Origin: an uncultured Thermoanaerobaculia bacterium
GTDB lineage: Bacteria > Acidobacteriota > Thermoanaerobaculia > Thermoanaerobaculales > Sulfomarinibacteraceae
DNA: 64,000 nucleotides
Assembly: GCA_964609835.1 (NCBI GenBank)
Contig: CAZSTH010000006.1
Location: 5,379 to 69,378 of the forward strand
Direction of reading: 5' to 3'
Position numbers and translations under genes: made by a program. The notes below the pieces were generated by a model. That model searched no databases. It was not told where the DNA came from and saw nothing but the letters and a program-made list of their open reading frames with translations. This document shows, in pieces, positions 13,817 to 60,728 of this stretch; positions within the stretch are counted from its first letter, which is position 1; every line of letters starts with the position of its first letter.

Positions 13817-13842
13817 CACCATGTCGGCAAGCTCACTCGTCC

Positions 13843-30946: not shown

Positions 30947-31336
30947 TCCTCGCCTGAACGCCCTCACAGACTTCAGCGGGCGGCACCTCCCGCCCTTCAT
31001 CGCGCGGTCGATGTCGTTATCGGTCATCAGTCGCCGCCCTTCTTGACACCTGTCGGTCGAGTAGTCCATTCTCTTCATATGATCCACATCCCGGCGAGCC
31101 CCGATCGGAGAGCACGGTTCGGCGCGTTCTCCCCGATCTAGGTGTGTCGGTCGGTCACCCCGGCCCACCGCTCGGAGCCCTGGACCGGAGAGAGGAGGTC
31201 AGTTCCGTTGCAGGTGGTCGCTGGGGGGCGCGCACCCCCCGGTGCCCGTTCGCCGGCTTTTCCGGGGCTTGTTATTTCGATCCATGAGCGGTCGCGTGGC
31301 CTGTGCACCGCGACTGGGAAGAAGGAGGAGAGGACA

Positions 31337-42025: not shown

Positions 42026-42760
42026 ATGGAGATGGACAATAACAACAGCCGCCCGGTCAATCAGAGCCCCGATTGGCAGGACGAGATCAGCTTCTGGGAG
42101 GAACAGCTGTCCGGCGACGGACAGTACTCCGATCTCTACCTCGACAGATTCGACCTCAGCAAACCGGGTTGGGCCTACCGCGACGATCTCGAAGACCTGA
42201 TCCGCGCGCTCGGCGCCGAGAAAGCGCGCAGCGGCAGGGTGCTGGATGTGGGCTCGGGGCCGGGTTCGGTGTTCTCGTACGGCTATTTCACCGGACGCTT
42301 CGACCTCGTCGCCGTGGACCCGCTGGTCACCGAGTATCTCGCGCTGATGAAAAAGCACGGCCGGCCCCAGATCTGCCCCATGGTGGATTGCGCCGGTGAG
42401 CATCTCAGCCGCCACCTGCCGCGCGGGCACTTCGACTTCGTGTGGTCCCACAACGCCATCGACCACAGCCAGCAGCCGGACCGTGTGCTCGCGAACATGG
42501 TCGACGTCACGCGGCCCGGCGGGGTCCTCGTGGTCCAGTGCTGGCAGGACGAGGCGACCCACGCCGCGTGGACCGGGCTGCACGCCTTCGACTTTCGTAA
42601 GCGGTCCGACGGCCATCTCTGCTACGCCACCAGCGACGGCGCGGTTCACCCGTTCCACGACCCCCGGATCGACGTCATCGATCCCTTGGTGGCCCCACTG
42701 AAAAACGTGCCGGAGCGCGACGGCAAGACCTGGATCGCGGCATGGTACCGCCGTCGGTGA
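42026..42760 (+). CDS. Class I SAM-dependent methyltransferase.
   Basis: The motifs RVLDVGSGPGS and TRPGGVLVV are present. It starts 6 nt after the upstream stop. Confidence 0.75.
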   Translation: MEMDNNNSRPVNQSPDWQDEISFWEEQLSGDGQYSDLYLDRFDLSKPGWAYRDDLEDLIRALGAEKARSGRVLDVGSGPGSVFSYGYFTGRFDLVAVDPLVTEYLALMKKHGRPQICPMVDCAGEHLSRHLPRGHFDFVWSHNAIDHSQQPDRVLANMVDVTRPGGVLVVQCWQDEATHAAWTGLHAFDFRKRSDGHLCYATSDGAVHPFHDPRIDVIDPLVAPLKNVPERDGKTWIAAWYRRR

Positions 42761-42789: not shown

Positions 42790-45700
42790 TTACTCCACAT
42801 AACCTAGAGCTTCGAGCTGTTTCCGCGTCTCCTCTGACAGCTCGGTCTCGTCCTGGCTGAGATCGTCCGACCACGCGGGGCTTGCAGCGATGAGTTGATC
42901 GAGCTCGTGGCGCAGACTCGCCAACACATCCGGCCGTTCCGCAACGAGATTCGTTCGTTGGTGAGGATCGGACTCGAGGTCGAAGAGCATGAACTGTGAG
43001 ACATCATTCCTTTTTCCGGTGAGAAAATCGGCGCCCGCGGTCGAGATCTCAGATACCTCGTGAACGCCGAGATCTGCGACCACGATATGCCGCTCATCTT
43101 TGTTGCCGGAGGTCACGTTGAAGGATCCCCGATTATTGCTGTAAAAGCGCCGCCAGCGCTCCTCGAGGTTGAGCTTGATCCTGAGGCGGGTCGAACCGGG
43201 CTCGAGGGGCAGCAACACGGTGTCCTTGACCACCTCGCCCGCGAGCCAGCTGAAGGAGGGCCGCCTGGCACCGCCGAGAAACCACCACAGCGAACACCTC
43301 GCGGATCCTCCAGTGACTGTCTCCGCCTCTGCGAACGCCGCCGCCGACAGCAGATATCGGCTCGAGATCATGGCCTGCCAGTACAGCGTGAGAAACAACT
43401 GGTCGCTGTGGCGCCTGAGATCGTAACCGACCAGACCGACAACGTCGTTGAATGACACGGCCAGCTCGTGCTCGGGCGTCAGCCGAGCAACCCGTTCGGC
43501 CGACTCTTCATCGCCGAGAATCGCCAGCTCGCGGTTCGCCTCGAGATGGCTCGGCACTTTGGCCAGACACGATTCCAACAACGACCTGCGCCCCTCGGCC
43601 CCGCTTTCGGTCTTAGCCAGGAAGAAATCGAGCTGTCCCTGCCCCGGATGACGGGTCGCGAGCAGCTCGAGGGCGTCGCGCACGTCGACGGTTGACCGGT
43701 CGACGCCGGCCGCGGGAAGGTCCTCCGGCCCGAGATCGCGAGTGGCGCAGGCAACCAGCCTGTCGCGCTGCGAATCCGAGATTTCCAGCGAGGCGCAGGT
43801 CGTCGGCGTTTTCGCGATCGACAGGCGCCCCTGATTGAAATAGAGAGGGTAGTCGACCACACCCACCTCGAGATCGTAGGTCCCCGGCTCGAGATCGGGG
43901 GGCACGGTCAACCACAGACAGTCATCCGCCAGCAGCTGCCGTTTCTCGAACGTTCGCTCCTCGAGGCGCCAGGGATCGATGAGAGGTCTCGGTTTGGCCT
44001 CGGGGTCCGGAAGCGGCCGGAAGAAGCTCGTCACCTCCTGGACGGCGACCCGACCTGCCCGGTCCACCAGCCGCCAGAGAACACCCACCCCGCGATCCAC
44101 GTTGCCGAGAACCCGCCAAACGGGGGTCAATCTGACGGTCTGGCCGCGGACCACCGCCGTGGGTGTCGCATCGAGGGCAGCCAGCTGCAGCGCATCGGTG
44201 AGGCGGACGGGCGCTATGCAGGACAACGACAATAGCGTTGCCCAGGGTCGCGAATCGCCGTGACCGTTTCTCCATACCCCCTCGATGCGCAATCGTCCGC
44301 CGTCCGGGGGCAACGGAAGAGGCGGAACCGTTCCTTCGAAGTCACCCGGCGAAAACTCGCCGAGCTCGACGTTTTCTTCGCCTATCGAGGCGCGCAGGGC
44401 GAGACGACCCTCCCCCGCGGGTCCGCGCAGAGTGCCGGCGAGCTTCACGGCCGCGCCACCGTCCAACACCGCCCGCGCGAGAGCCAGGGACTCCAGTGTC
44501 ACGTCCGGAGCCAGCACCACAGGCCATCGAATGCTGCTCCGTCCGGGCGCCGTTGGAACGAAGGTCGTTGGACCTTCCACCACGGACTGGTATTCGGTCG
44601 CCATCAGCAAGGCACCGCCGAAACGAGACCCTCCGTTGTAGACCAGGCGCCAACGACCTGAGGTGAGAGCCCACCCACTCTCCCCTCTCGAGGCGCCTTC
44701 CTGGCTGACCACAATCCGGTTCGGCGGCGCGGCATCGACGAGAGGCGAGTTGAGCATCCCGAAATCTCCGCTGAGACCAGCCATCACGAGCACGGTCGGC
44801 GCGATGTCGAGATGTGAGACCACCTCGTTCACCACCGACGGCCGGCGCCGCACGGTGTCGTGGACGAGGAGCGGAACGTGCAGGATTTCGTCGATCAGGA
44901 GCTTGCCGTGGTCGCACATCAGACCGTGCTCGCCGAGGGCCTCACCATGATCGCTGGTGACGATGAAGATCGTTCGCCGCCGCCGTGGCAACGCCTGCCA
45001 ACGCCTGAAGAAGTCGTCGGCGAGCGAGTCGGCATAGGCAATATTGGCCTCGTAGCGGCGCAGGTAGTCCGCCAGATCGGTCTGCAGCGAGGCCTTAGCC
45101 TGGTACCAGGGAATCCGCCCGATCACCGAGTCGCCGAGCGATAGACGGGCGCCGAAACGGGAGCTGTGCGGCAGATGGTCGACAACCGGGGCTGCATGGA
45201 AATCCGGTCGATCGAGAATCTCGTCGGGCGGCAGGTAGGGTCCGTGCGGCGGCCAGAAGTGGATGTAGACAAACGCCGGCCGGTTCGCGTCGGCTCCGGA
45301 TGCCCAGTCCAGGCACTCATCGGTCACGCGCGACCCCAGATCGTGATCCCTGGCGGCCTCGTAGGAGACGTGATCGAACTGACCCTCGAGCCCGTAGCTT
45401 TCTCCGATGGCCGGGTTGGCGGTGAAGAACCCGGTTCGATAGCCGCCGTCGGCGAGTGGCCGGGCGAGGGTCGATCGATTCTCGGGAAAGGCCTTGTTGA
45501 ATCGCCAGCCCTGGTGGGCGAGCGGAGGCAACCCGGAGAGCAGGCTGGTCACGGCAGGCCGGGTCCAGGTGGCTGCCGCGTAGCAGCGGGAGAAGACCAG
45601 CGATCGCGCCGCCAGGCCTGCAAGGAAGGGAGCCGTGTTCCGTGTATGGCCGTGGAACGGCAGTGATTTGGCGCGCAGGCTATCGAGAACCAGCACGACG

Positions 45701-45816
45701 ATATCGGGCCGTTCTTCCTCCCGAACGCCGCATCCCGCCAGACCTATCGCGACAGTCGACGCGCTCAGGGTGCTGATGAACTGGCGGCGTGAGATGTCGG
45801 TTCGATACCGGCTCAC
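42790..45816 (-). CDS. 1,008-aa Tat-exported lipoprotein with a sulfatase/alkaline-phosphatase-superfamily fold, split by a large insertion.
   Basis: The N-terminus is SRRQFISTLSASTVAIGLAGCG (twin-arginine motif plus lipobox). The fold motifs are IVVLVLDSLRAKSL and TSDHGEALGEHGLMCDHGKLL. The nucleophile segment reads ATWTRPAVTSLLSG instead of C/S-x-P-x-R. The sulfatase-type C-terminal motif FMLFDLESDPHQRTNLV appears only near residue 950. Confidence 0.75.
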   Translation of the reverse strand: MSRYRTDISRRQFISTLSASTVAIGLAGCGVREEERPDIVVLVLDSLRAKSLPFHGHTRNTAPFLAGLAARSLVFSRCYAAATWTRPAVTSLLSGLPPLAHQGWRFNKAFPENRSTLARPLADGGYRTGFFTANPAIGESYGLEGQFDHVSYEAARDHDLGSRVTDECLDWASGADANRPAFVYIHFWPPHGPYLPPDEILDRPDFHAAPVVDHLPHSSRFGARLSLGDSVIGRIPWYQAKASLQTDLADYLRRYEANIAYADSLADDFFRRWQALPRRRRTIFIVTSDHGEALGEHGLMCDHGKLLIDEILHVPLLVHDTVRRRPSVVNEVVSHLDIAPTVLVMAGLSGDFGMLNSPLVDAAPPNRIVVSQEGASRGESGWALTSGRWRLVYNGGSRFGGALLMATEYQSVVEGPTTFVPTAPGRSSIRWPVVLAPDVTLESLALARAVLDGGAAVKLAGTLRGPAGEGRLALRASIGEENVELGEFSPGDFEGTVPPLPLPPDGGRLRIEGVWRNGHGDSRPWATLLSLSCIAPVRLTDALQLAALDATPTAVVRGQTVRLTPVWRVLGNVDRGVGVLWRLVDRAGRVAVQEVTSFFRPLPDPEAKPRPLIDPWRLEERTFEKRQLLADDCLWLTVPPDLEPGTYDLEVGVVDYPLYFNQGRLSIAKTPTTCASLEISDSQRDRLVACATRDLGPEDLPAAGVDRSTVDVRDALELLATRHPGQGQLDFFLAKTESGAEGRRSLLESCLAKVPSHLEANRELAILGDEESAERVARLTPEHELAVSFNDVVGLVGYDLRRHSDQLFLTLYWQAMISSRYLLSAAAFAEAETVTGGSARCSLWWFLGGARRPSFSWLAGEVVKDTVLLPLEPGSTRLRIKLNLEERWRRFYSNNRGSFNVTSGNKDERHIVVADLGVHEVSEISTAGADFLTGKRNDVSQFMLFDLESDPHQRTNLVAERPDVLASLRHELDQLIAASPAWSDDLSQDETELSEETRKQLEALGYVE

Positions 45817-46661
45817 CAGTCATGCCCCTCTTCATACCCGAGGGTCACCAGGAGATCTCCGCAACGTTCTTTGACGAATGCCTGCGCGTCGGGCGTCCGG
45901 ATATGGTTCTTCCAGTCGCCGACGATGCCCTTGCGAAAGAGCGGTTTGAACTCGCGCGCGCGCCGCAGGTGATCGGCGAATGGAATCGGCTCGTCCACGT
46001 AGTGCGAGCTCACCATCGCGTCGTCAGGAATCTGCAGTCCGCTGAACCCGATCACCCGCTCGAGCACGCCGACGAAGTCTTCTTTCATCCCCTCGTAGGT
46101 GATCTTGAGGAAATCGACCCCGTCCTCCTCGAGCGAGCGCTCCGCCGCGAGAACTTTCTCGCAGCTCGTGATCGAGGCCTCGAAGACCTTGCTCTGCTTA
46201 AGGTATTCGAAGGTACCGACGTCGTCGTGCTCCTCAACCTTGTGCAGCTGCCGCTGGAGGTAGAGCTCGTTCGAGATGTATACGTCTCTCGGATCACGGT
46301 AGAGGATCACGGTCTTGGTGTCGCGGAAAAGGTGGCGGAATTCAAGGAAGGAGTGGATGTTGGACGGCGCCTTGTCTACCAGCAACCCTACGTGGGCGTG
46401 GCGCTCACGCTCGATCTCATACAGCCGGACGATCTTTTCTTCCGGCGTCAGACCTTCGTCCTGGCGGACGGCGAGGTACTGCTTGTCCTGTGACGTCTCG
46501 GCGTTCCACTGACGGTCGAGCGAGAAGTTCACGAAGTAGAGAAAGTCAAACTCGCGGGGAAACATCATGTGCGGCCGTACGGTGAGACCGTGAGCCAGCC
46601 AGCTGCTGCCGCACTTGGCCGGGTTGAGCACCAGCAGAAAATCCTTGAATACCCTGCTCAC
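45813..46661 (-). CDS. Sulfotransferase.
   Basis: LVLNPAKCGSSWLAHGL resembles the 5'-PSB loop and ILYRDPRDVYIS resembles the 3'-PB motif. The GTG start has GGAGGGGG upstream. It overlaps both neighbours by 4 nt. Confidence 0.75.
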   Translation of the reverse strand: MSRVFKDFLLVLNPAKCGSSWLAHGLTVRPHMMFPREFDFLYFVNFSLDRQWNAETSQDKQYLAVRQDEGLTPEEKIVRLYEIERERHAHVGLLVDKAPSNIHSFLEFRHLFRDTKTVILYRDPRDVYISNELYLQRQLHKVEEHDDVGTFEYLKQSKVFEASITSCEKVLAAERSLEEDGVDFLKITYEGMKEDFVGVLERVIGFSGLQIPDDAMVSSHYVDEPIPFADHLRRAREFKPLFRKGIVGDWKNHIRTPDAQAFVKERCGDLLVTLGYEEGHDW

Positions 46662-47461
46662 GCCCCCTCCCCTCCGCTCGCCGACGCTTTGGCAGATTGA
46701 CCGCCCGCAACCCCGGCCAACGGCTCCTGTGTGTACAGGCTGACCACCTCGTCCACCGGTCCGAGCGCCGTCAACCGGCCCGTGCTCAGCAGAGCCGCGC
46801 GCGTGCACAGATTGCGCACCGCCTGCAGATTGTGGGAGACCAGGAGCACGGTTGCTCCACCGTCGCGGAATTCGTTGATCCGCTCGGTGCACTTCGCCTT
46901 GAACTCGGTGTCGCCCACCGACATGATCTCGTCCATCAGCAGAACGTCCGGTCGCACGTCGGTGGCGATCGCGAAGCCGAGCCGGGCGCGCATGCCCGTC
47001 GAGTACGTCCGCAGCGGTGCGTCGATGAAATCCGCGAGGCCCGCGAAGTTGATAATTCGATCGAAACGCGCCGCCATGTCCGCGCTCGAAAAGCCAAGGG
47101 TCGCGCCGACCAGAAAGACGTTCTCCCGCCCGCTGAGCTCGTCGTTGAACCCCGCGCCGAGGCCGAGCAGCGGCGCCACCAGGCCGCGAACCACGACCCG
47201 ACCGCCGGTCGGTCGAAGCACCCGCGCCACCACCTTGAGGAGCGTCGTCTTGCCGGCACCGTTGCGGCCGATGAGGCCGAAGACCTCGCCCGCCCGGACC
47301 TCGAACGAGATGTCGCGCAGCGCCCAGAACTCACCCACCGCCAGCTGTCGCTTGAGCCTCCGGATCGCGTACTCCTTGAACGAGGTCACCTTCTCGTGCG
47401 AGACCCGGTAGCACAGCGAGAGTTCCTGGACGGCGATCGCGGGTCGAGGCGCGGTGCTCAC
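46658..47461 (-). CDS. wzt: Polysaccharide-export ABC transporter ATP-binding protein (Wzt/TagH/KpsT type), with no C-terminal carbohydrate-binding extension.
   Basis: FWALRDISFEVRAGEVFGLIGRNGAGKTTLLK, YSTGMRARLGFAIA and VLLMDE are present. At 267 aa it contains only the ATPase core. Confidence 0.85.
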   Translation of the reverse strand: MSTAPRPAIAVQELSLCYRVSHEKVTSFKEYAIRRLKRQLAVGEFWALRDISFEVRAGEVFGLIGRNGAGKTTLLKVVARVLRPTGGRVVVRGLVAPLLGLGAGFNDELSGRENVFLVGATLGFSSADMAARFDRIINFAGLADFIDAPLRTYSTGMRARLGFAIATDVRPDVLLMDEIMSVGDTEFKAKCTERINEFRDGGATVLLVSHNLQAVRNLCTRAALLSTGRLTALGPVDEVVSLYTQEPLAGVAGGQSAKASASGGEGA

Positions 47462-47462
47462 G

Positions 47463-48326
47463 TCACGCCCTCAACGCGAACTCGTGCTGGTTCTTGACGA
47501 AGATCCACCATCCTGCGACCACCGCGATCAGCGCGCCGGCGGAGGACACCGCGAGCGATTCGGCCGACGGCAGGACGCCGGCGTAGATCGGGTCCCGCCA
47601 GCACGCGAGGAGGTGGTAGAGGGGGTTCGCCCGCACCAACCACACGAAACGCTCCGGGAGGATATCCTCCGGGTACATCACCGGCGTCAGATAGAACAGC
47701 GCCCGCACCAGCACCCCCCACATCTCGACCACATCTGTGTAGCGGACGGCAACGGTGGACATGATGAGGCCGACGCCGAGGGAAAAGCACGCCAGCAGCA
47801 CCATGGCAACCGGCAGGAACAGGAGCGACCAGGACAGCCGCTGGCCGAGCACCAGCATGATCAGAAGCACCGGCGCCAGCGACATGGTGAGGTTGACGAG
47901 TGCAGTGCCCACCGACGACAGGGGGTAGGTGGCCGCTGGGACGTAAACCTTCTTCAACAGTGAACTCCCCCACACCAGCGACCGCATGCTCTGGGTAGTG
48001 CTCTCCTGGAAGAAGCCGAAGAACACGAGTCCGGCGAGCACGTAGACCGGGTAGTTCGGCACCGAGAAGCGGAAGATCGCCGAGAACGCGATGCTCATCA
48101 CGATCATCGTCAGCAGAGGGCTCAGCAACGACCAGCCGATTCCCAGCACCGATCGTTTGTAGCGGCTCTTGACGTTGGTGGCGATCAGGAGGCGCAGGAA
48201 GTCTTTGTAGCGCACCACCTCCAGCAGCCCGCTCCACAGCGGTCGCCGCCCCGCCGTCGACGAGTCGTAGACGAGCCCGCCCGCGGGCACGCCCTCGGCC
48301 TGGGCTGTGGTCGACCGCTCGTTCAT
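47463..48326 (-). CDS. wzm: ABC-2 type polysaccharide-export permease (Wzm/TagG type).
   Basis: DFLRLLIATNVKSRYKRSVLGIGWSLLSPLLTMIVMSIAF is the family motif, followed by six hydrophobic segments. The ATG at 48326 has GGAGGG upstream and an ATGA overlap with the upstream gene. Confidence 0.85.
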   Translation of the reverse strand: MNERSTTAQAEGVPAGGLVYDSSTAGRRPLWSGLLEVVRYKDFLRLLIATNVKSRYKRSVLGIGWSLLSPLLTMIVMSIAFSAIFRFSVPNYPVYVLAGLVFFGFFQESTTQSMRSLVWGSSLLKKVYVPAATYPLSSVGTALVNLTMSLAPVLLIMLVLGQRLSWSLLFLPVAMVLLACFSLGVGLIMSTVAVRYTDVVEMWGVLVRALFYLTPVMYPEDILPERFVWLVRANPLYHLLACWRDPIYAGVLPSAESLAVSSAGALIAVVAGWWIFVKNQHEFALRA

Positions 48327-50377
48327 TCGCCCTCCGCGCTGTCGCTGCGCCTCTTGGCGTGAAAACGCCGCCGGTTGGCCTCGTAGATCCGTTCGTACGC
48401 CTCCGGCGGCAGCTTGCCGAAGCTGGCCTCCTGGAAATGGTGGACCCACGCATCGCGCCGGCACCGGACATCGTACCCTGCCCGGCGGATGCGGCGGCTG
48501 AAGTCGTCGTCCTCGAACAGGCCGACCTCGAAGCGCTCGTCGAGCCCGCCCACCTCCTCCCACACTGTCCTCCGCAGCGCCGCGCAGTACAGGGCGAGCA
48601 TGGGAATCGAGAAGTCCTCACCGCGATGGTTCCATACGAAGTCGGCGGCCCAGTCCTCCAGTTCTCCCAGATCTTGGTAGCCCGGCTCCACCCGCGCTTC
48701 GTTGGCGACGCCACCACTCGATGGCCCCACCAACCCAAGTTCAGGAGACCCCATCAGCGCTTCCGTCAATGTGGACAGCCAACCCCGGCTGACGATGGTG
48801 TCGTTATTCAGGAAGCAGAGGATCTCCGATTCGCATCCGGCGAAGGCCTGATTGCACGCGGCGGCAAAGCCGCGGTTGTCATCGTTGAGAATCACCCGGT
48901 GTCCCGGCCGTCGAGCAACCTCGTCGCCGAGCCATGCGGCGGTGCCGTCCGTGGAGGCATTGTCCACTACCACCACCTCGTAGTTGGGATGGATAGTCTG
49001 CGATTCGATGCTGGCAAGGCAAAGCTCGGTAAGCTTGCGGTTATTGAACGTCACGATGCCGATGGTCACGGACGGGAAGAGCTCGACCATGGCCCGCTCG
49101 AGCACCTCGACGCGAGCCTCCCACGAGTTCTCGACCGCAAAAGACCGTCGCTCGGCTACACTGATGCTTTCACCCACAACTGCCTGATCGAGCTCTCTCA
49201 AAAAGGTCTCGATGTCGTCGGCCAAACGAACGAGTTGTTCGAGGCGAGCAATCTCGGGCAGGGAGGGCGCCACAACCTCGAGACCCAGAGCGAGCATCTC
49301 GTAGAGCTTGACCGGGTCGGTGGCCTCGGTCAGGGGCGTGCGTTTGAACGGTATCATTCCGACGTCGAAGGCTGAGGCCAGGCTCGGAAGCTCAGAGTAC
49401 TTTCGTTCGCCGAGCAGATGGACGTTCGGCAGCACCTCGAGACGGGTCACGTCGGCGCCCCAGGTGGACCCGATAAGGACGAATGACCAATCGGGCCGGG
49501 CCACGGCCAGCGATTCAACAAGCCCCACGTCGAACCACTCCGAGATCGCTCCGAAGTAGCCCACGATGGGCCGCGGCAATTCCTGCAGTTCCCCCGCGGT
49601 ATCCACGCGTCGCCAGTGCTCGGGGTCGCAGCCGTTCGGCAATCGAAGCACCGGGCGCCGGGTCGGTCGTTCCACTTCCGCCAGCCGCGCGGCCGTCGCC
49701 GTCACCAGATCAGCCTCGCTCACCAGGCGGTTGTCATCCTCGCCAACAGACCGAGCGGTGGTCGAGAAACCCTCGTGGAGATCGATACGGTCGTAGACGA
49801 TCGGCCACCCGTGCTCCCGACGAAGAATCTCCGCGAGCGGCCGCCAGCCCGGGCTCTGGCACAGGACAATCGCCGAGTCGATTCGATGGCTCGCCACCAG
49901 CTTGCGAATCGCATCCGCGGCCATTCGGATGTCGCCGGATGCCAGGCGTTCCTCGCCCACCCGTCGACTGCGCGACGCCGGCAGAAGCACTTCGTGAACC
50001 CCGGGCGCTTGCGGCTCCGGGTCGACGAACACCACGCCGCCTCCGCCTCCCTCGAGCTCCGTGCCGGCATAGAGCACCGGCCACCCACGGGCCGCCAAAC
50101 GCCCCAGGAGGTGGTGCGGCCTCTGTACGCGCAGCTCCCAGTCGATGACCGAAAGGAAGATGATCGTCGGCCGGGCGGGCGAATCTCCAAAATGTACGCT
50201 CGCGCCGGCGCCTAACGCTCCGCCGGTAGATCCCGCGACGAATTGTCCGCGGTCCCGGCCGCGTCCGATGACTCGGAGTATTGTCCGGCGCACCCGGAAC
50301 GGCAGGACCGTCGCCGCAATTGCCTTGACAGTAGCCACCGGGTGCCGGACCCGATGCCACCAGAGTCCAAGTCGCAT
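48323..50377 (-). CDS. Bifunctional glycosyltransferase with an N-terminal GT4-like domain and a C-terminal GT2 domain.
   Basis: The GT4-like part has TIIFLSVIDWELRVQRPHHLLGRLAARGWPVLY and VGMIPFKRTPLTEATDPVKLYEMLALGLEVV. The GT2 part has VTIGIVTFNNRKLTELCLASIESQT, VVVDNASTDGT and FLNNDT. The start is uncertain (ATG 50377 preferred, 50455 or 50608 possible). Confidence 0.75.
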   Translation of the reverse strand: MRLGLWWHRVRHPVATVKAIAATVLPFRVRRTILRVIGRGRDRGQFVAGSTGGALGAGASVHFGDSPARPTIIFLSVIDWELRVQRPHHLLGRLAARGWPVLYAGTELEGGGGGVVFVDPEPQAPGVHEVLLPASRSRRVGEERLASGDIRMAADAIRKLVASHRIDSAIVLCQSPGWRPLAEILRREHGWPIVYDRIDLHEGFSTTARSVGEDDNRLVSEADLVTATAARLAEVERPTRRPVLRLPNGCDPEHWRRVDTAGELQELPRPIVGYFGAISEWFDVGLVESLAVARPDWSFVLIGSTWGADVTRLEVLPNVHLLGERKYSELPSLASAFDVGMIPFKRTPLTEATDPVKLYEMLALGLEVVAPSLPEIARLEQLVRLADDIETFLRELDQAVVGESISVAERRSFAVENSWEARVEVLERAMVELFPSVTIGIVTFNNRKLTELCLASIESQTIHPNYEVVVVDNASTDGTAAWLGDEVARRPGHRVILNDDNRGFAAACNQAFAGCESEILCFLNNDTIVSRGWLSTLTEALMGSPELGLVGPSSGGVANEARVEPGYQDLGELEDWAADFVWNHRGEDFSIPMLALYCAALRRTVWEEVGGLDERFEVGLFEDDDFSRRIRRAGYDVRCRRDAWVHHFQEASFGKLPPEAYERIYEANRRRFHAKRRSDSAEGE

Positions 50378-50522: not shown

Positions 50523-51881
50523 ATGAGCATGAAACCTGCAGCATTCGTAGCTCTCTCCACGGTTGTTTTTCTTGCGCTCGCCGGCGTCTGCATCGGGGCT
50601 GAAGACAACGGCCTCGAGGTCGGGTTAACGGCCTACGAGGACGGCGACTTCGAAACCGCTCTCGAACTCTGGGGACCGCTGGCCGAGGTCGGATCCACCG
50701 AGGCCCAGTACTACCTCGGCGTCATGTACTCACGCGGCGAGGGTGTGCCCGCCGATCCCGAGATCGGCGCCAACTGGTACAACCGCGCAGCCTCGTTCGG
50801 CCACGCCCGGGCCCAGTTCAATCTCGGCCTCGCGTATCTCAAAGGGGTGGGCGTCGAGCGCGACACTGACGAGGGCGCCAAATGGATCCTCAAATCAGCC
50901 CAGCAGGACTGGCCACCGGCCCAGCATGCCTACGCCCTGCTTCATGTTCAGGGTGTCGGCGTCGAGATCGACATGGAGGAGGCGGCAGCTTGGATGTTGA
51001 AGGCCGCGGAAAACGCCAACGCCGACGCCCAGTACGCCCTCGGTATGATGTACGTGCAGGGCCGGGGCGTCGAAAAAGGTCCGCCCGAGGGGATTCGGTG
51101 GCTGCAGGCAGCCGCCGCGCAGTCCCACCCGGAGGCCGTCTATGCGCTCGCAATGGCCAATCCGGCCCGCGGTTTTGAGGCTGATACTCCCGAAGCGTTA
51201 GAGAAGATCCGGGCCGCAGCCGACCTTGGCTATGCCCAGGCCCAGTACGACCTCGGTGCAGCATATGCGACCGGGTCGGCCGGTTTGGAGCAAGACGAGG
51301 CCGCGGCAGCGCGCTGGTTCCTCAAGGCCGCCAGTCAGGGTCTGGCTCGGGCTCAGTACGAGGTCGGCTATCTCTACGAGCACGGCCAGGGCATCGACAA
51401 GGACGAGTCGGAAGCCGCCAGGTGGTATTCCCTGGCCGCTGACCAGGGCGATGACAACGCCAAATATGCGCTCGGCTACCTTTACTCCTCCGGCCGGGGC
51501 GTCGAGCGCGACCTCGATCGGGCATTCGCTTTGATTTCGAACGCAGCCGCCGGCGGCCAGGTCCCGGCCCAATATGCCCTCGGCTTCATGTACGACATGG
51601 GGCACGGCACTGCTCAAGACTACGGTATAGCCCTCGATTGGTATCGCAAGGCGGCTGCCGGCAGTAACGCCGACGCCATGTTCGCGATCGGAAACCTTTA
51701 TGCGAACGGTCTCGGAGTCTCAGAGGATATTGTTGAAGCCGAGAAGTGGTATTGTCGCGCCGCTCGCCTCGGACATCAGCAATCGATAAAAATACTGCCA
51801 TGGGACAGCCCGGATGATGTTTGCGGTCCGGTCGATCCTCCAGAGTCGGCAGACCACCCTACCGATACAGAAATCGAATAG
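50523..51881 (+). CDS. Secreted Sel1-like (SLR/TPR) repeat protein.
   Basis: A signal peptide is present. About ten repeats follow, of the form AQYxLGxMYxxGxGVxxDxxEAxxWxxKAA. Confidence 0.85.
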   Translation: MSMKPAAFVALSTVVFLALAGVCIGAEDNGLEVGLTAYEDGDFETALELWGPLAEVGSTEAQYYLGVMYSRGEGVPADPEIGANWYNRAASFGHARAQFNLGLAYLKGVGVERDTDEGAKWILKSAQQDWPPAQHAYALLHVQGVGVEIDMEEAAAWMLKAAENANADAQYALGMMYVQGRGVEKGPPEGIRWLQAAAAQSHPEAVYALAMANPARGFEADTPEALEKIRAAADLGYAQAQYDLGAAYATGSAGLEQDEAAAARWFLKAASQGLARAQYEVGYLYEHGQGIDKDESEAARWYSLAADQGDDNAKYALGYLYSSGRGVERDLDRAFALISNAAAGGQVPAQYALGFMYDMGHGTAQDYGIALDWYRKAAAGSNADAMFAIGNLYANGLGVSEDIVEAEKWYCRAARLGHQQSIKILPWDSPDDVCGPVDPPESADHPTDTEIE

Positions 51882-51957: not shown

Positions 51958-52098
51958 GGGCCTGATAAATTTAATTGAAAATCGGAGCAAGAAGTGAAAC
52001 AATAAATGTACACAGAAAAGGTCGCGATCGGCCGGAGTTTCCCACCTAATGTTGGCAGAAATTGATGGATGACCGAACCTGAAAAGGAGGCGAAAGCT

Positions 52099-52932
52099 AT
52101 GGAGAAGAGGACCTGTGTCGTGATGTTGGCAGTGGCGCTAGTTTTCTTTGCGCAAGGGGTCGAGGCTGAGATGCCGGATCCGAACCTGCAGAAGCTGCCA
52201 TCCGAGATCGTTGGAGAACACCTCTGGGACGGGCTAACCAGTGAGGATGGCGCGGCTCCAAAAGGCTCGTCGTTCGGCCTGGAATGGCAGTACTATCACC
52301 TTATGGGCGCCAAGTTCGTCCCAGTATCTTCGAACGAATGCACCATGAGATACCACTCGTGGTACGGCTTCTACCTTGAGTCCATTGACGGCACGACGTG
52401 CAGTAACGGATACGTCATCGCGCCGATGAACCTTCCGGCCGGGGCATATCTCGACCGAGTCGCTTGCTTCACCTATGACACTGACGCCACCCAGAACATC
52501 GACTGGGCCTTTCAACGCGTAGAATATCCTTTCCCCAATGGTCCCCCGACGTACACAAACGTAACCACCATGACAAGGGACTACGACACAGGCTGGGGGG
52601 AGATCTGGACCTCGGTCGGTGAGACCATCCGCTACGCTCTCACCAATGCCCAGTTTTACGGCCTCAGGGTTTGGATGGATCCAGGCAATACAGACCACAG
52701 ATTGCTGGCCTGCCGGCTGTACTGGAACCGTCAGATCGCTCCGGCCCCTGGCACCGCCACGTTCGACGACGTGGGCACCCTCCACTGGTCATTCCAGAAC
52801 GTGGAAGCCCTTGTTGACGCCGGCATCACCGTCGGCTGTGGCGGGAACAACTACTGCCCGGGACAGACAGTGACTCGCGCCGAAATGGCGGCCTTCCTGG
52901 CCCGCGCGCTCGGCCTGCACTGGCCCTACTAG
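52099..52932 (+). CDS. Secreted protein of unknown function with one C-terminal Cys-bridged SLH-like repeat.
   Basis: AAGGAGG lies 8 nt upstream and the signal peptide is MEKRTCVVMLAVALVFFAQGVEA. The C-terminus is FDDVGTLHWSFQNVEALVDAGITVGCGGNNYCPGQTVTRAEMAAFLARAL. GC content is visibly lower than in the flanking sequence. Confidence 0.8.
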   Translation: MEKRTCVVMLAVALVFFAQGVEAEMPDPNLQKLPSEIVGEHLWDGLTSEDGAAPKGSSFGLEWQYYHLMGAKFVPVSSNECTMRYHSWYGFYLESIDGTTCSNGYVIAPMNLPAGAYLDRVACFTYDTDATQNIDWAFQRVEYPFPNGPPTYTNVTTMTRDYDTGWGEIWTSVGETIRYALTNAQFYGLRVWMDPGNTDHRLLACRLYWNRQIAPAPGTATFDDVGTLHWSFQNVEALVDAGITVGCGGNNYCPGQTVTRAEMAAFLARALGLHWPY

Positions 52933-53026: not shown

Positions 53027-55486
53027 GTGAACATCTCCCGAACCATCAGTGCAGTTCTCGTCGTTGTCGCTCTCGCATCCGTCGTCCCAGCCCGCGCCGG
53101 CGCACCCACGCCTGCCCCCGTCCACCCCTGGGTGCTCGAGCACACGCTGGATGGTCACGAGGCGCAGTTTTTTGTGGTGCTGCGCGAGCAGGCAGACTTA
53201 CAGCCCGCGCGCTCGCTCGAGTCGAAGGCTGCGAAAGGACATTTCGTTTTCCAGGCACTCCGAGACACTGCCGAGAGCAGCCAGGCGGATCTGCGGGCAC
53301 TGCTCGAGAAGGAGGGCGTCTGGCATCGTCCGTTCATGATCGTCAATTCCGTGCTGGTGCGAGGCGACCGCGAGCTGGTTGAACGCCTTGCCAGACGCCC
53401 CGACGTCCTCAGGATCGAGGGCAACCCGGTGATCCACAACGAACTGCCCTCCACTGCCCCAGGATCATCCAGCGAGGCACCGAATGCCGTTGAATGGGGC
53501 GTCTCCCGCACGAACGCGCCCGCGGCATGGGCGCTGGGTTTTACCGGCCAAGGCATCGTGGTTGGCGGTCAGGACACCGGGGTCGACTGGGACCATCCAG
53601 CCATTCGCGACCAGTACCGGGGCTGGGACGGTGAGGCGGCAGACCACGACTACAGCTGGCACGACGCGATCCACGACGCCGGCGACAACCCCTGCGGCAG
53701 CGACTCGCCCGAGCCGTGCGACGACCACGGGCACGGAACCCATACCATCGGCACGGTCGTGGGCGACGACGGCGGCTCCAACCAGATCGGGATGGCACCC
53801 GGCGCCCGCTGGATCGCCTGCCGCAACATGGACGCGGGCAATGGCACCCCGGCCACCTACATCGAATGCCTCGAGTTCTTCCTGGCCCCGTATCCCTACA
53901 GCGCCACACCGGCAGAAGGGGATCCCTCGAAGGCTCCCGACGTCACCAACAACTCGTGGTCGTGCCCACCGTCGGAGGGCTGCTCGTGGGACACGCTGCA
54001 GGCCGCCATCGACGCGCAACGGGCGGCCGGCATCATGACCGTGGTGTCGGCCACCAACGACGGTCCCTCGTGCGCAACCGTCACCGACCCGCCGGCAATC
54101 TACGATTCGGTCTACTCAGTTGGCTCGACCACGTCGTCGGACCAGCTGTCCAGTTTTTCGAGCCGGGGACCGGCGGCCACCAACGGCGACGACCCGACGC
54201 TGATGAAGCCCGATATCGCGGCCCCGGGGTCTGGAATCCGCTCCGCGCTTCCGGGCGGAGGCTACGGAACCATGTCCGGCACCAGCATGGCCGGGCCGCA
54301 CGTGGCCGGTGCCGTGGCCATCTTGTGGTCCGCTCTGCCGGAGTTGACCAACGACCAGACCGCCACCGAGGCTCAGATAAACGAAACCGCCGTTCGGCTG
54401 ACCGGCATTGTCGAGGGCTGCGGCGGCGACAACGTCGACGGTCCGAACAACTCGTGGGGCCACGGGCTGGTGGATGTGGAGCAGGCGCTGATCGGTGACA
54501 CCTCGCTGCAGCCGAACGGCCTCGAGGTCGAGCTGGTTGACGGCCTCGACAACGGGGTTCTCGAGCGCGGCGAGCAGTTCCGTCTCGCTCCCTCTTGGTT
54601 CAATCCGGGGACCTTCGTGGCGCCGTCGATCACCGGCCAGGCATCCGCCGCCACCGGTTTGCTCATCGCAAAGGACACCGCCTCGTACGGTGACATCCCT
54701 GCCGGGGCCGAGCAGTCGTGCTCCGGTCAGGGTGATTGTTATAGCGTTCGGGTTTCGAGCTCGCGTCCGGCTGGCCATGTGGACCGAACGCTCAACGAGC
54801 TGTTGAGCAGCGGCGAGACCGCCGAATGGGTGCTGCACATCGGTGAGAGCTTTACCGATGTGGCTACCGACTTTTGGGCCTATCCGTCAGTGGAGACCAT
54901 TCTCCACCACGGCGTGACCCTCGGTTGCGGCGGAGGGCTCTACTGCCCGGGCGACATCGTACCGCGTTGGCAGATGGCCTTGTTCCTGGCCCGCGCCATG
55001 ACCGGCCCCGCCGAGATTCCCTTGACCGGGGTGGTTCCGGGCAAAGGGAGCTACGACTGCTCCCCCGGAGGCACATCATTGTTCGATGACATCCTTCCTA
55101 CCGATTCAGCCTGTGCCGCGGTTCACTACCTGGCCACTCATGAGATCACCCTCGGATGCGGCGGGTCGCTCTATTGTCCGAACGACCCAGTCGCCAGAAG
55201 GGAAATGGCGGCGTTTCTCGCCCGCGCAATGGCTGGCGACAACCCCATTCCGACCACCGGCACGGTCCTTGGAATGGGCGATTACGATTGCTCACCCGGG
55301 GGCGCCTCCGTTTTCGCTGACCTGACCGCGGACGATTGGGCCTGCCCCGAGGTTCACTTTATCGCCTCGTACCAGGTCACCCTCGGCTGCGGCGGCTCGC
55401 TCTATTGCCCGGGCGAGATCGTCACCCGCGCCCAGATGGCTGCCTTCCTCGAGCGCGCCTTTTCGCTCGAGCTCTATGGACCCTAG
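53027..55486 (+). CDS. Secreted subtilisin-family (S8) protease with an I9-like propeptide and three C-terminal Cys-bridged SLH-like repeats.
   Basis: GGAGG lies upstream of the GTG start. The catalytic triad motifs are GQDTGVDWDHP (Asp), DDHGHGTHTIGTV (His) and MSGTSMAGPHVAGAVAIL (Ser). The SLH-like repeats occupy 54851..55483. Confidence 0.9.
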   Translation: MNISRTISAVLVVVALASVVPARAGAPTPAPVHPWVLEHTLDGHEAQFFVVLREQADLQPARSLESKAAKGHFVFQALRDTAESSQADLRALLEKEGVWHRPFMIVNSVLVRGDRELVERLARRPDVLRIEGNPVIHNELPSTAPGSSSEAPNAVEWGVSRTNAPAAWALGFTGQGIVVGGQDTGVDWDHPAIRDQYRGWDGEAADHDYSWHDAIHDAGDNPCGSDSPEPCDDHGHGTHTIGTVVGDDGGSNQIGMAPGARWIACRNMDAGNGTPATYIECLEFFLAPYPYSATPAEGDPSKAPDVTNNSWSCPPSEGCSWDTLQAAIDAQRAAGIMTVVSATNDGPSCATVTDPPAIYDSVYSVGSTTSSDQLSSFSSRGPAATNGDDPTLMKPDIAAPGSGIRSALPGGGYGTMSGTSMAGPHVAGAVAILWSALPELTNDQTATEAQINETAVRLTGIVEGCGGDNVDGPNNSWGHGLVDVEQALIGDTSLQPNGLEVELVDGLDNGVLERGEQFRLAPSWFNPGTFVAPSITGQASAATGLLIAKDTASYGDIPAGAEQSCSGQGDCYSVRVSSSRPAGHVDRTLNELLSSGETAEWVLHIGESFTDVATDFWAYPSVETILHHGVTLGCGGGLYCPGDIVPRWQMALFLARAMTGPAEIPLTGVVPGKGSYDCSPGGTSLFDDILPTDSACAAVHYLATHEITLGCGGSLYCPNDPVARREMAAFLARAMAGDNPIPTTGTVLGMGDYDCSPGGASVFADLTADDWACPEVHFIASYQVTLGCGGSLYCPGEIVTRAQMAAFLERAFSLELYGP

Positions 55487-55574: not shown

Positions 55575-56777
55575 TCAGTCGTTGGGCAGCACCCTGGTCA
55601 GACTGTAGGTGCGCTGCAAGAAGGCCGCCATCTGCGAGCGAGTCACCGAGTCGAAGGGGCAGTAGTTGCCGTCGCCGCAACCGGTGGTGATACCGTCCTC
55701 GCCGAGCTTCTTGATCCACTTACAGAATGGATGGGTGTCGGGCACATCGTTGAACCCGGAGTTGCCGCCGGAGCAGGCGGGTGGAACGTAGCTTGCACCA
55801 TATTTTCCGCGCAGCAGGAAGACCGCCATCTGGCCGCGGTTGACGGCGTCGAAGGGGCAATAGATCAGCGGATTCGTGCCGCAGCCGCCGGTGAACCCTT
55901 CATCGTAGAACTCCTCGACCCAGTCGTAGAACCACTGGCCGCTGTTGACGTCGGCGAACGTGGGGGTTCCAGGACCATCAGGCGGCGCGTAAGAGCATGC
56001 GTCTACATTCTCCCCTCGGAGAATAAACGCCGCCATCTGTGCGCGGGTTACCGTGTCGAAGGGGCAATAGACGCCTACACCGCAACCGGTCGTGACGCCG
56101 CCCCCGTAGATCGCCAGCACATCGGGCAGGTACCAGGCGCTCGAGGGTATGTCGCTGAAGACCTCGACGGGGCCGATCACGGAGTCGGTGCGGAATGAGG
56201 CGAAATCGTCAAAGAGCAGGCTTCCCGAGGTGCCCGAGTCGACGCCCGCCACAGCACCCATTCGAGCGGTTTCGATCGAGCCGGTACTGTTGCTCAAGCT
56301 CGGCAGGTCTTGGACCGCCGTATTGTCGATCCGCGCCTCGAGACTGCCCGGCGAACCGGCCTTCCAGGTCACCTCGATCAGATGCCATCCGGCCGGCAGC
56401 ACGGTCGAATTCGAGGTCAAATACGTGCCGCCATCCACGCGGCCCTCGAACTTGACAATGCGGTCCGACCCGCTCTGATCGAGAATCACACGCGCCCACA
56501 CGTTGTCCGATCCGTCGAGTGCCTCAAACAGGCTGAACCCGTCGCCCGCCATTGTCAGACAGTTGGCCCGGACATAGAAGCGGAAGGTGTAGGTGGCTTC
56601 GCCGCTCGGTGTGTCGGTCTCAACGTACGCCGGCGACGTGTCAGTGATGGTCACCTTCATCCCGTAGGTCCCGCTGTACTCGGAAAATTCGTCAACCGCC
56701 GGAGCATCGTTGGCGCCGGCAGCGCCGGCGAACGCCAGCGTCAGCACCGAAAGAATGGCCACCGTTCTCGACTTCAT
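55575..56777 (-). CDS. Secreted LamG/concanavalin-like domain protein with three C-terminal Cys-bridged SLH-like repeats.
   Basis: AGGAGG lies upstream and the signal peptide is MKSRTVAILSVLTLAFAGAAGA. The N-terminal beta-sandwich-like region contains WHLIEVTWKAGSPGSLEARIDN. The SLH-like repeats occupy 55578..56159. Confidence 0.8.
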   Translation of the reverse strand: MKSRTVAILSVLTLAFAGAAGANDAPAVDEFSEYSGTYGMKVTITDTSPAYVETDTPSGEATYTFRFYVRANCLTMAGDGFSLFEALDGSDNVWARVILDQSGSDRIVKFEGRVDGGTYLTSNSTVLPAGWHLIEVTWKAGSPGSLEARIDNTAVQDLPSLSNSTGSIETARMGAVAGVDSGTSGSLLFDDFASFRTDSVIGPVEVFSDIPSSAWYLPDVLAIYGGGVTTGCGVGVYCPFDTVTRAQMAAFILRGENVDACSYAPPDGPGTPTFADVNSGQWFYDWVEEFYDEGFTGGCGTNPLIYCPFDAVNRGQMAVFLLRGKYGASYVPPACSGGNSGFNDVPDTHPFCKWIKKLGEDGITTGCGDGNYCPFDSVTRSQMAAFLQRTYSLTRVLPND

Positions 56778-56985
56778 GAAGACCTCCTGTTGTTCATCTG
56801 CCGTTTATCAGGACGGGCCAGGTCGCCCGAGGTAACGCCCGCCGGAGCGCGTCGCAAAAGCTCCCGGCGACCCTCCATCCCGATCGTGCCGAAGACCACC
56901 CCTGCCGGCATGTGATGGACGCCACATTCTCGCCTGCCGAACACCGGACGACACCTCGAAAGACTGCTAGGATAAGGGCGTCATC

Positions 56986-57957
56986 ATGGCCGATCGGGTC
57001 TCAATTTCTGTGGTCGTCCCGACCCACGACATGCGTGAACAGACGCTGAAGTGCCTGGCGTCACTGTGGCTGTGCGATCCGCAGCCCAACGAGGTCGTCA
57101 TCGTCGACGACGGCAGCTCCGACGACACCGTGCACTCCGTTGTTCGAAAGTACCCCCGCCACATCGTTGTTCGCCTTCCTCAGAGCCTTGGATTCTCCGA
57201 GGCTGCCGGGCACGGCATCGCCCGTTCGTCCGGCGAGGTCGTCCTGGTGCTCGATCCGAACATCGAGGTCGCGCGACCGTCGCTCGGCGCAGTCACCGAG
57301 GCGTTCGCGAACGACCGCAACCTCGGCATTGCCGGCGCCGTCGTGCACCACCCCGAGGGACCGCCGCGTTGGAGCGGCGGCCGAATGCCGTCCGCACTGC
57401 AGTGTTTCTTGGAAGCCACCGGACTCCCGTCATTGGCCGGCAGCTTGCGCCTGCTCCAATGGCTTCGGTCCACGGCGCGGACAACCGGCGGTCCCGTGGA
57501 CTGGGTCTCGGCGTCCGCCATGGCCATTCGACGCAGCGTGTGGTTGAGCCACGGTCCCCTCGATCCATGCTGTGACCGGCTCGGCCACGATCTCGACCTG
57601 TGCGTCGAAGCGGCGCGCGGCGGATGGCGGATCGAGGTGCTCGAGAGCTTCAGGGTCGTGCTGCACAACGGGAACAGGCCGTCTCGCGACGACCTTCAGC
57701 TTTGGCCCGACCCAGCCGAGGCCGCGTGGCCGGACCTGCTTCGCCTCGCCGACCAGAGATTCGGGGCGTCGCGAGCGTTGCGAACCGCGCGAGCGCTGCA
57801 GATGGGCAGCTCCATTCGGCTCTTCGGTCTGCGCCTCGCCGGACCGCTGGTGCCACCGGAGCGCCGTCAGGCCCTGCGGCGGTCGTCGACCTTTTTCGCC
57901 CTCTCGAAGCACGAGGCCGAAAGGGCTCCGTCTGAAGGTCGCGCACGACCGCGTTGA
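56986..57957 (+). CDS. Family-2 glycosyltransferase.
   Basis: ISVVVPTHDMREQTLKCLASLW, VVIVDDGSSDDT and VLVLDPN are present. Confidence 0.8.
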   Translation: MADRVSISVVVPTHDMREQTLKCLASLWLCDPQPNEVVIVDDGSSDDTVHSVVRKYPRHIVVRLPQSLGFSEAAGHGIARSSGEVVLVLDPNIEVARPSLGAVTEAFANDRNLGIAGAVVHHPEGPPRWSGGRMPSALQCFLEATGLPSLAGSLRLLQWLRSTARTTGGPVDWVSASAMAIRRSVWLSHGPLDPCCDRLGHDLDLCVEAARGGWRIEVLESFRVVLHNGNRPSRDDLQLWPDPAEAAWPDLLRLADQRFGASRALRTARALQMGSSIRLFGLRLAGPLVPPERRQALRRSSTFFALSKHEAERAPSEGRARPR

Positions 57958-58110
57958 GCTCCGGTTCGCGGCGCCGCCGGGCGCCCCCGATTCCCCGCCA
58001 AATCGAGGCACGGTATCCTAGAGACGAGGGCGTCGCGTGCGGCACCGCTTGCCCGGTGTCACCATTGCAATCACGGTTCGACGACCTGAAGGGACCAGGG
58101 TCAGCAAGCG

Positions 58111-60680: not shown

Positions 60681-60728
60681 CGATCGATGATAGACGATTG
60701 CCAAAGCGGGCGAAGCTACAATCTCCTC

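Follow-up and report, generated by a model that had tools for sequence, protein, structure and literature searches.

A 64-kb stretch of DNA from an uncultured Thermoanaerobaculia bacterium (the window, contig CAZSTH010000006.1) carries an operon for the synthesis and export of a cell-envelope glycan. The operon consists of five successive open reading frames on the minus strand, from 42790 to 50377, with a strong third-position GC bias in a window of 62-74% GC. In order, they encode a bifunctional glycosyltransferase (GT), the ABC-2 permease Wzm, the ATPase Wzt, a predicted sulfotransferase of the type that uses 3′-phosphoadenosine 5′-phosphosulfate (PAPS) and a lipoprotein with a sulfatase-fold catalytic domain, here called APf (Table 1). 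A preliminary description of the locus, made from the sequence alone, had listed the same five genes in this order, and both the reading frames and their coordinates stand, with profile support for the products.

The genes are tightly packed. As read from the sequence, the GT/Wzm junction is an ATGA at 48326..48323. Wzm ends in a TGA at 47465..47463 that is separated by one base from the GTG start of Wzt at 47461, and Wzt and the sulfotransferase gene share a GTGA at 46661..46658. These three junctions had been described correctly, whereas the fourth, between the sulfotransferase and APf genes, had been given as ATGA and is instead a GTGA at 45816..45813, a 4-nt overlap of start and stop codons. 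A G-rich Shine-Dalgarno-like stretch is located 6-14 nt 5′ of each of the five starts. The chosen starts are further backed by the lengths of homologues, which are 279-291 aa for the sulfotransferase, apart from one 192-aa partial sequence, and 287-291 aa for Wzm. Relatives have the same junctions, with a GT/Wzm overlap of 4 or 8 nt, a 1-nt gap between Wzm and Wzt and 4-nt overlaps around the sulfotransferase gene, and thus the tight packing of the operon is conserved. Overlaps of this kind are the commonest operon junction in high-GC genomes and are ordinary when taken alone. A promoter scan found no sigma-70-like promoter and terminator-like sites did not exceed the shuffled expectation, both scans being uninformative on the transcript. 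With the overlaps read directly and the domains confirmed by profiles, the earlier view of a translationally coupled operon holds: the locus is an ABC-transporter-dependent cell-envelope glycan pathway of five translationally coupled genes.

Table 1. Coordinates of the operon, of the parts of APf and of neighbouring genes related to the polymer (aa, amino acids; SAM, S-adenosylmethionine; UDP-GlcNAc, UDP-N-acetylglucosamine)
Feature	Position in window	Strand	Remarks
Bifunctional glycosyltransferase (GT), 684 aa	48323..50377	-	First gene of the operon
Wzm, ABC-2 permease of the glycan exporter, 287 aa	47463..48326	-	Start overlaps the GT stop (ATGA)
Wzt, exporter ATPase, 267 aa, short form	46658..47461	-	1-nt gap after Wzm
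Predicted cytoplasmic PAPS-type sulfotransferase, 282 aa	45813..46661	-	GTGA overlap at each end
APf, Tat-signal lipoprotein with sulfatase-fold catalytic domain, 1008 aa	42790..45816	-	Last gene of the operon
APf signal region, twin-arginine SRRQFI and lipobox LAG-C29	45730..45816	-	Read from the translation
APf catalytic alpha/beta domain, residues ~37-410	44587..45708	-	T85 codon at 45562..45564
APf insertion module, residues 415-940, three beta-sandwiches and a helical repeat	42997..44574	-	From AlphaFold2 secondary structure
APf C-terminal sulfatase subdomain remnant, FMLFDLESDPHQRTNL, then helices	42793..42996	-	From alignment to solved sulfatases
SAM-dependent methyltransferase	42026..42760	+	Convergent; Methyltransf_11 1.8e-12; stop 29 bp from the APf stop
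CsaB-like polysaccharide pyruvyltransferase with two GT2 domains, 1257 aa	38247..42020	+	PS_pyruv_trans 1.8e-32; GT2 twice
SLH-domain protein	52069..52932	+	SLH PF00395
S8 peptidase-SLH protein	53027..55486	+	SLH PF00395
SLH-domain protein	55575..56804	-	SLH PF00395
UDP-GlcNAc 2-epimerase (MnaA-like) remnant	27052..27500	-	Residues 1-55 and 273-364 of the L088 orthologue, in two frames

The exporter core and the sulfotransferase

The first three genes encode the machinery for polymerisation and export. Pfam matches were judged throughout against the curated cut-offs. The C-terminal domain of the GT belongs to Glycos_transf_2 (GT2; 77.8 bits, 1.2e-21) and the N-terminal GT-B domain, which is GT4/TuaH-like, reaches 26.1 bits with Glyco_trans_1_4, for which the cut-off is 27. 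The N-terminal assignment is also backed by similarity to TuaH (72.7 bits, 2.5e-20), and Glyco_trans_1_4 is likewise matched in orthologues. GT orthologues that are 54-73% identical occupy the equivalent position in the related loci L001, L003, L088, L089 and L090. Wzm matches ABC2_membrane (62.2 bits, 6.5e-17), has the galactan exporter permease Wzm/RfbD as its best NCBIfam match (93.6 bits) and is 92% identical to its orthologue in L088. Wzt matches ABC_tran (76.8 bits, 3.2e-21) and scores 179-195 bits with the NCBIfam models of TagH and galactan Wzt/RfbE. A permease and its cognate ATPase beside polymerising GTs constitute a Wzm/Wzt-type exporter and the arrangement is kept in L001, L003, L088 and L090. 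GT-Wzm-Wzt is a conserved core across lineages.

This layout resembles the Wzm/Wzt systems for O-antigen and mycobacterial galactan and the TagGH system for teichoic acid, which also have an ABC-2 permease and an ATPase beside multidomain polymerising GTs. Galactan Wzm/Wzt and TagH provide the best NCBIfam matches, yet the window proteins score far below the equivalog cut-offs of these models. The window further differs from these systems in the sulfotransferase and the Thr-type sulfatase-fold lipoprotein that follow Wzt, and in a Wzt devoid of a carbohydrate-binding domain. The C-terminal Wzt_C domain found in the Wzt of L005 is absent from the window protein, and with such a short Wzt the export of the polymer may be independent of terminal-cap recognition.

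The fourth gene is predicted to encode a genuine PAPS-type sulfotransferase. It matches Sulfotransfer_1 (PF00685) with 55.9 bits over a cut-off of 22 (5.4e-15) and Sulfotransfer_3 with 40.7 bits, the kind of profile support that the preliminary description had set as the test of this assignment, and its three cofactor motifs are complete. Across 24 homologues that are 42-77% identical, the invariant residues are P14-x-K16-x-G18-S19-x-W21 in the 5′-phosphosulfate loop PAKCGSSW, R122-D-P-R-D126...S130 in the 3′-phosphate motif RDPRDVYIS and R243-K-G-x-x-G-D-W250 in the segment RKGIVGDWK. The closest solved structures are those of cytosolic SULT2B1 and SULT2A, and the cofactor motifs align to SULT2B1. 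The gene has a GC content of 59% compared with ~65% in its neighbours. A foreign insertion was considered on account of this low GC and rejected: third-position GC is normal (0.81), and the drop in second-position GC (0.33) reflects amino-acid composition.

Sulfotransferases within ABC-transporter capsule loci have been described for the capsular polysaccharides of Vibrio sp. KMM 8419 and Cobetia marina (PMC11641403). KpsS of Mesorhizobium loti is a further sulfotransferase in an ABC-transporter capsule context, as cited in a passage of PMC11625862. The sulfated capsules of all three have a PAPS-type sulfotransferase inside the polysaccharide locus, as in the window. The Vibrio loci also carry cysNDC for the supply of PAPS, which the authors call a hallmark (PMC11641403). 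In contrast, the window contains no cysNDC and its SULT-like sulfotransferase of 282 aa represents a distinct family. A literature search covering sulfotransferases in clusters for secondary cell-wall polymers (SCWPs) or Wzm/Wzt exporters, as well as Thr-type sulfatase-like enzymes, found no direct precedent.

The sulfatase-fold lipoprotein APf

The N-terminus of APf, MSRYRTDISRRQFISTLSASTVAIGLAGC, contains both a twin-arginine motif and a lipobox. SRRxF is conserved family-wide and the lipobox Cys is found in the closer members only. Together with a match to Sulfatase PF00884 of 124.5 bits (cut-off 25, 7.2e-36), SRRQFI and LAG-C29 agree with the earlier identification of an exported twin-arginine translocation (Tat) lipoprotein with a sulfatase fold. 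The AlphaFold2 model of APf, with a predicted local distance difference test (pLDDT) of 87 and a predicted template-modelling (TM) score of 0.88, comprises the catalytic domain (~38-410), two beta-sandwiches (~430-680), a helical repeat (683-779), a third beta-sandwich (783-920) and the final strand and helices of the sulfatase fold (942-1008). Its best Foldseek matches are choline sulfatase (E = 2.6e-17) and S1 sulfatases. The insertion module of ~530 residues sits before this last strand and helices, and the remnant behind it corresponds to the C-terminal 'LYDL..DP.E..NL' segment in alignments with solved sulfatases. Modelled alone, the 526 residues of the module reach a pLDDT of 86.8. A fold search was tried as a route to its function and abandoned, as Foldseek returned only generic tandem FN3/Ig/macroglobulin-like matches (TM ~0.15), from which no assignment follows. 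The modelled module fits a macromolecule-binding role and is not diagnostic of one.

The active site departs from that of sulfatases. The motif T85-R-P-A-V stands where sulfatases have C/S-x-P-x-R and aligns to C-A-P-S-R of 6hhm and S-Q-P-S-R of 3b5q, the Arg of the motif being replaced by Val. The GKWH region, whose Lys/His bind sulfate and the formylglycine hydrate in sulfatases, reads T-A-N-P in APf, and at the position of the second sulfate-binding Lys there is D302, a variable residue beside the invariant H303. Thus, of the features of a formylglycine sulfatase, the fold and the metal ligands are present while the nucleophile motif and the sulfate-binding Lys/His are absent.

The same residues characterise the family. 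Full-length APf homologues are ~1000 aa and 31-63% identical, and in a 24-sequence alignment (A1) D45, T85, H186, H191, D289, H290, E292 and H303 are invariant. T85 is found in 26 of 29 family members, the remaining three being fragments without the site. Nearly all more distant homologues also have Thr at the nucleophile site, and only one of 95 hits is a true CxPxR sulfatase. Distant hits commonly read W-T-L-P-S-H around the Thr, which recalls the T-F-P-N-H motif of NPP. In a profile search of 1.84 billion representatives, 131 of the top 150 proteins could be aligned and every one of them has Thr at the nucleophile position. The same search shows that the full architecture is rare, with ~20 clusters at 50% identity above 800 bits; below this score come fragments first and then relatives consisting of the catalytic domain only. 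In the wider APf clade the set of metal and nucleophile residues is 97-100% conserved. Given this invariance, the loss of the sulfatase residues is not decay.

As judged from these sequences, APf is not a formylglycine sulfatase and belongs to a large Thr-nucleophile branch of PF00884, in which the rare clusters with the ~530-residue insertion form a subfamily of their own. It looks like a sulfatase-derived lineage with a switched nucleophile. Source annotations name the family 'arylsulfatase A-like', which is almost certainly wrong. The sulfate-editing role that had been suggested as possible for the last gene is likewise abandoned in view of the T-R-P-A-V motif and the missing Lys/His. Two sources of formylglycine maturation were considered and rejected. 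The radical SAM/SPASM gene of the window, at a distance of 30 kb, has metalloenzyme maturases and not anSME as its matches, and those that neighbour APf in L001 and L003 are radical SAM genes of a B12-binding, methyltransferase-like kind.

In both sequence and fold, APf is best matched by S1 sulfatases and phosphonate monoester hydrolases, with which it shares the N- and C-terminal subdomains, the Asp and Asp-His ligands and the PPHxPY histidine. It differs from S1 sulfatases in features that define them, namely T-R-P-A-V at the nucleophile and the lack of the GKWH Lys/His and of the second Lys. With GacH/SccH, LtaS, OpgB, EptA and BcsG it shares the sulfatase fold, a Thr (or Ser) nucleophile and an Asp/Glu-Asp-His metal site, and D45/T85/D289/H290 of APf mirror E488/T530/D711/H712 of GacH and E255/T300/D475/H476 of LtaS. 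In GacH and LtaS, this Thr is the phosphoryl-transfer nucleophile and gives rise to a covalent glycerol-phosphate intermediate (10.1101/337519). The gene for GacH shares a cluster with the ABC exporter of the polymer, and the enzyme works after export (10.1101/337519). In contrast to this group, APf is nearer to S1 sulfatases in sequence and carries the 530-residue insertion. Models of EptA give only partial matches (19-32 bits). Unlike LtaS, GacH and EptA, APf has a Tat signal and a lipid anchor and no polytopic membrane domain reaching a lipid donor.

Distant members of the APf family often occur among tandem or clustered PF00884 paralogues. There are two 1030-aa copies in L005 (5156..11403), and extra copies of 520-734 aa are found in L006 (5172..10114) and L007 (1..13132). 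These clusters suggest that Thr-type sulfatase-fold genes have duplicated repeatedly within glycan loci.

The exported polymer and its probable modification

The nature of the polymer is indicated by neighbouring genes. The methyltransferase that converges on the operon has an orthologue in L088 that is 70% identical and likewise convergent. The adjoining pyruvyltransferase fusion matches PF04230 with 113.8 bits, above the cut-off. SLH proteins, three of which are encoded in the window, also flank the clusters of L001, L003, L088, L089 and L090. In Bacillus and Paenibacillus, CsaB pyruvylates N-acetylmannosamine (ManNAc) of the SCWP, which is then bound by SLH domains (PMC6030368, PMC6081394, PMC11464976). 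The window island has a CsaB-like pyruvyltransferase and several SLH proteins in common with this CsaB/MnaA system. It differs from it in the fusion of the pyruvyltransferase to two GT2 domains, in having an epimerase remnant and an added sulfotransferase, and in its host, an uncultured bacterium that is probably diderm. The best named relatives, at ~58-62% identity, are Acidobacteriota-type MAGs; for an ABC ATPase, the named matches reach only 58-59% and come from Acidobacteriota, Thermoanaerobaculales and Methylomirabilota, and a genome scan yielded no relative above 33% identity. The CsaB-like enzyme, the methyltransferase and the three SLH proteins suggest a pyruvylated, SLH-anchoring wall polymer that is probably also sulfated, and a multiply decorated glycan, proposed before with sulfate, methyl and pyruvate, is a reasonable prediction from the pyruvyltransferase fusion and the methyltransferase. 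The most economical reading is an anionic wall polymer that is pyruvylated, methylated and, in this lineage, sulfated, and that anchors SLH proteins. The epimerase remnant is probably a pseudogene, and an intact UDP-GlcNAc 2-epimerase may be encoded elsewhere in the genome.

The sulfotransferase and APf genes occur in different combinations in related loci. In L001-L004 the order is GT-Wzm-Wzt-APf, with APf (46-47% identical) directly after Wzt and no sulfotransferase. The distant APf members of L005-L007 reside in clusters of GT, methyltransferase and Wzm/Wzt genes, again without a sulfotransferase. Conversely, L090 and L093 have the order GT-Wzm-Wzt-ST-ST2, ST being the sulfotransferase and ST2 a second sulfotransferase-like gene, and lack APf. 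L091 and L092 have a sulfotransferase homologue beside separate CsaB and GT2 genes, and the complete set of five genes occurs in L089, arranged as in the window. In L088, the closest relative, the region 9204..10554 holds an APf gene that carries a frameshift, ends after ~96 codons and is followed by a DDE_Tnp_1_4 transposase gene, and the sulfotransferase gene before it is intact; this amounts to a natural APf knock-out. The comparison of the two genes covers roughly 12 independent contexts. Among those with the sulfotransferase, its gene directly follows Wzt in four of six, with overlapping stop and start codons in two, and has a CsaB-like pyruvyltransferase/GT2 gene beside it in all six. 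Since each of the two genes is found without the other, they are independent accessories of the exporter core, that is, separately gained or lost 3′ genes that are combined in this lineage.

Next to APf, the clusters of L001 (9055..18348) and L003 (13061..22668) contain several B12-binding radical SAM genes, a methyltransferase and a PhoD phosphodiesterase. The radical SAM genes have weak matches to P-methyltransferase families (PhpK, Sden_1168), which hints at unusual methyl or phosphorus chemistry in the polymer of these two loci.

The best explanation overall, which we regard as fairly probable, is an exported wall glycan with an independent sulfotransferase and a Thr-type phosphoester enzyme, APf. 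Synthesis of the polymer by the two-domain GT and the GT2 fusion would take place on a lipid carrier, on the cytoplasmic side of the membrane. Before export, the CsaB-like fusion would add pyruvate, and the polymer would also be methylated and receive O-sulfate from PAPS. Wzm/Wzt would then export the decorated polymer, which may serve as an anionic, SLH-binding wall polymer similar to an SCWP. APf, tethered at the membrane surface by its lipid anchor, would act after export. Its metal centre (D45, D289, H290) and Thr85 could form a covalent phospho-enzyme intermediate, so that the enzyme would cleave or transfer a phosphoester and not sulfate, with GacH, LtaS, OpgB or NPP as analogues. Candidate targets are a phospho-substituent, as for GacH and OpgB, a phosphodiester within the polymer or the lipid-pyrophosphate anchor. 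Phosphoester chemistry on the exported polymer is the likeliest role of APf, although as an assignment it is tentative.

Several observations weigh against this explanation. The single transcript is deduced from the gene overlaps alone. The PAPS synthesis genes cysC, cysD and cysN were not found within the 64-kb window, which also shows no evident pathway for a phosphate donor or a phosphate substituent. Among PDB profile matches of APf, the top 60 are all sulfatases or phosphonate monoester hydrolases, none of them LtaS, EptA or NPP; the phosphoester assignment comes from the nucleophile and the lost sulfate-binding residues and not from overall similarity. APf also lacks a polytopic membrane domain, only the Tat signal and the lipobox preceding its catalytic domain. 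As for the polymer, the N-terminus of the pyruvyltransferase fusion scores 201.7 bits with the CsaB equivalog TIGR03609, below the cut-off of 213.1, and the epimerase expected for ManNAc-pyruvate is present in the window only as a remnant with a ~217-codon internal deletion and a frameshift.

The preliminary description had proposed a functional pair, in which the sulfotransferase sulfates the glycan inside the cell and the exported sulfatase-family protein edits, removes or relocates the sulfate outside. The two genes are indeed adjacent, with a 4-nt overlap in the window and in L089 and ancestrally in L088, and true sulfatases are the closest relatives of APf in fold and sequence. It is also general knowledge that enzymes of the alkaline phosphatase superfamily are promiscuous between sulfate and phosphate esters. 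However, Thr occupies the position of the formylglycine precursor, and the residues that support formylglycine or bind sulfate (Arg, Lys and His) are missing invariantly across the family. Moreover, APf orthologues hold the same position in L001-L004 without any sulfotransferase, and the sulfotransferase persists where APf is absent (L090/L093) or a pseudogene (L088). No formylglycine-generating enzyme is encoded nearby, the only SPASM radical SAM gene being distant and not anSME-like, and a sulfate-editing pair is thus very improbable. A different possibility, also unlikely, is that APf merely shares the transcript and is a general Tat-exported phosphatase or phosphodiesterase with a role in nutrient scavenging or wall turnover, comparable to PhoD. 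Tat export is used by PhoD-type phosphodiesterases, a PhoD gene is found at the edge of the L001 and L003 clusters, and L088 has lost APf and kept the rest of the operon. A scavenging enzyme is nevertheless difficult to reconcile with a position right after Wzt that persists from lineage to lineage despite protein identities of only 46-63%, or with the GT, methyltransferase and Wzm/Wzt clusters that surround distant members, and the size and conservation of the beta-sandwich and helical module suggest a macromolecule as the substrate.

The same module, with its Ig/FN3-like domains and helical repeats, could belong to a catalytically inactive protein that binds the polymer in order to guide, measure or anchor it. 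The sulfatase-like periplasmic domain of PbgA/YejM is reportedly a non-catalytic binding or scaffold part of this kind, and the canonical sulfatase residues of APf are lost. An inactive APf is still improbable, as the nucleophile and metal set, together with H186, H191, E292 and H303, remains invariant down to ~30% identity, a pattern typical of selection on catalysis. The weight not given to phosphoester chemistry or to sulfate editing falls on scavenging, scaffold or other roles of APf. The sulfotransferase, for its part, may be a passenger of the operon with a lipid, small-molecule or protein acceptor. Among solved structures it is nearest to cytosolic SULTs that act on small molecules and not to carbohydrate sulfotransferases, and there are no PAPS genes nearby, yet its recurrent place directly behind Wzt, at times with overlapping codons, and its constant CsaB-like pyruvyltransferase/GT2 neighbour make an acceptor other than the exported glycan unlikely. 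A bolder proposal, given only a slim chance, is that APf is an exporter-coupled, LCP-independent wall-polymer ligase on a sulfatase scaffold or, even rarer, the first Thr-based sulfuryl-transfer enzyme. As a ligase anchored at the outer face of the membrane, APf would direct Thr85 against the polyprenyl-pyrophosphate linkage of polymer brought out by Wzm/Wzt, and would then hand the polymer-1-phosphate on to peptidoglycan or a different acceptor.

The operon is a variant of the ABC-transporter-dependent glycan pathway, and sulfotransferases in such loci are already known. What is new is the combination of a sulfotransferase with a CsaB/SLH-type system, together with an exporter-linked family of Thr-type sulfatase-fold proteins. 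We know of no sulfated SCWP and, to our knowledge, sulfated chemistry has not been described for pyruvylated, SLH-anchoring wall polymers. If the sulfotransferase acts on the exported polymer, the product would be a sulfated member of this class, and bacterial glycan sulfation would extend to uncultured lineages outside the few known genera. APf defines a rare, conserved and exported family of ~1000 residues, in which Thr stands at the site of the sulfatase nucleophile and whose genes are tied to Wzm/Wzt exporters. Its substrate would fill a gap in the processing of ABC-exported polymers outside the membrane. Metagenomic sulfatase counts for Acidobacteriota, Planctomycetota and their relatives would also be corrected by a reassignment of the family.

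Other genes of the island

A second glycan module is located near the SLH genes. It comprises a GT2 gene (56971..57957), a GT1/GT4 gene (58090..59463) and a Wzx-like Polysacc_synt flippase gene (59448..61031, minus strand), so that a Wzx-dependent pathway adjoins the ABC-dependent one in the same island. Divergent from the operon, 145 bp from the GT start, is a gene for a Sel1-repeat protein (50523..51881, plus strand) with nine repeats and a signal-peptide-like N-terminus. A Sel1 fragment is also found at the edge of L089.

Two giant proteins of the secreted type are encoded on the far side of the pyruvyltransferase gene. One (3..6299, minus strand) exceeds 2098 aa, runs off the window and has CarboxypepD_reg, SdrD_B or SpaA-like repeats. 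The other (31142..36034, plus strand) is 1630 aa long and has CarboxypepD_reg/SdrD_B/SpaA-like repeats and a DUF4394. A homologous CarboxypepD_reg giant flanks the L003 cluster. The minus-strand regions 6520..10239 and 10478..13832 encode a CHAT-TPR protein (1239 aa), a Crp-family regulator, the radical SAM/SPASM protein resembling a 'metalloenzyme maturase' and a NapH-like polyferredoxin, all unrelated to the operon.

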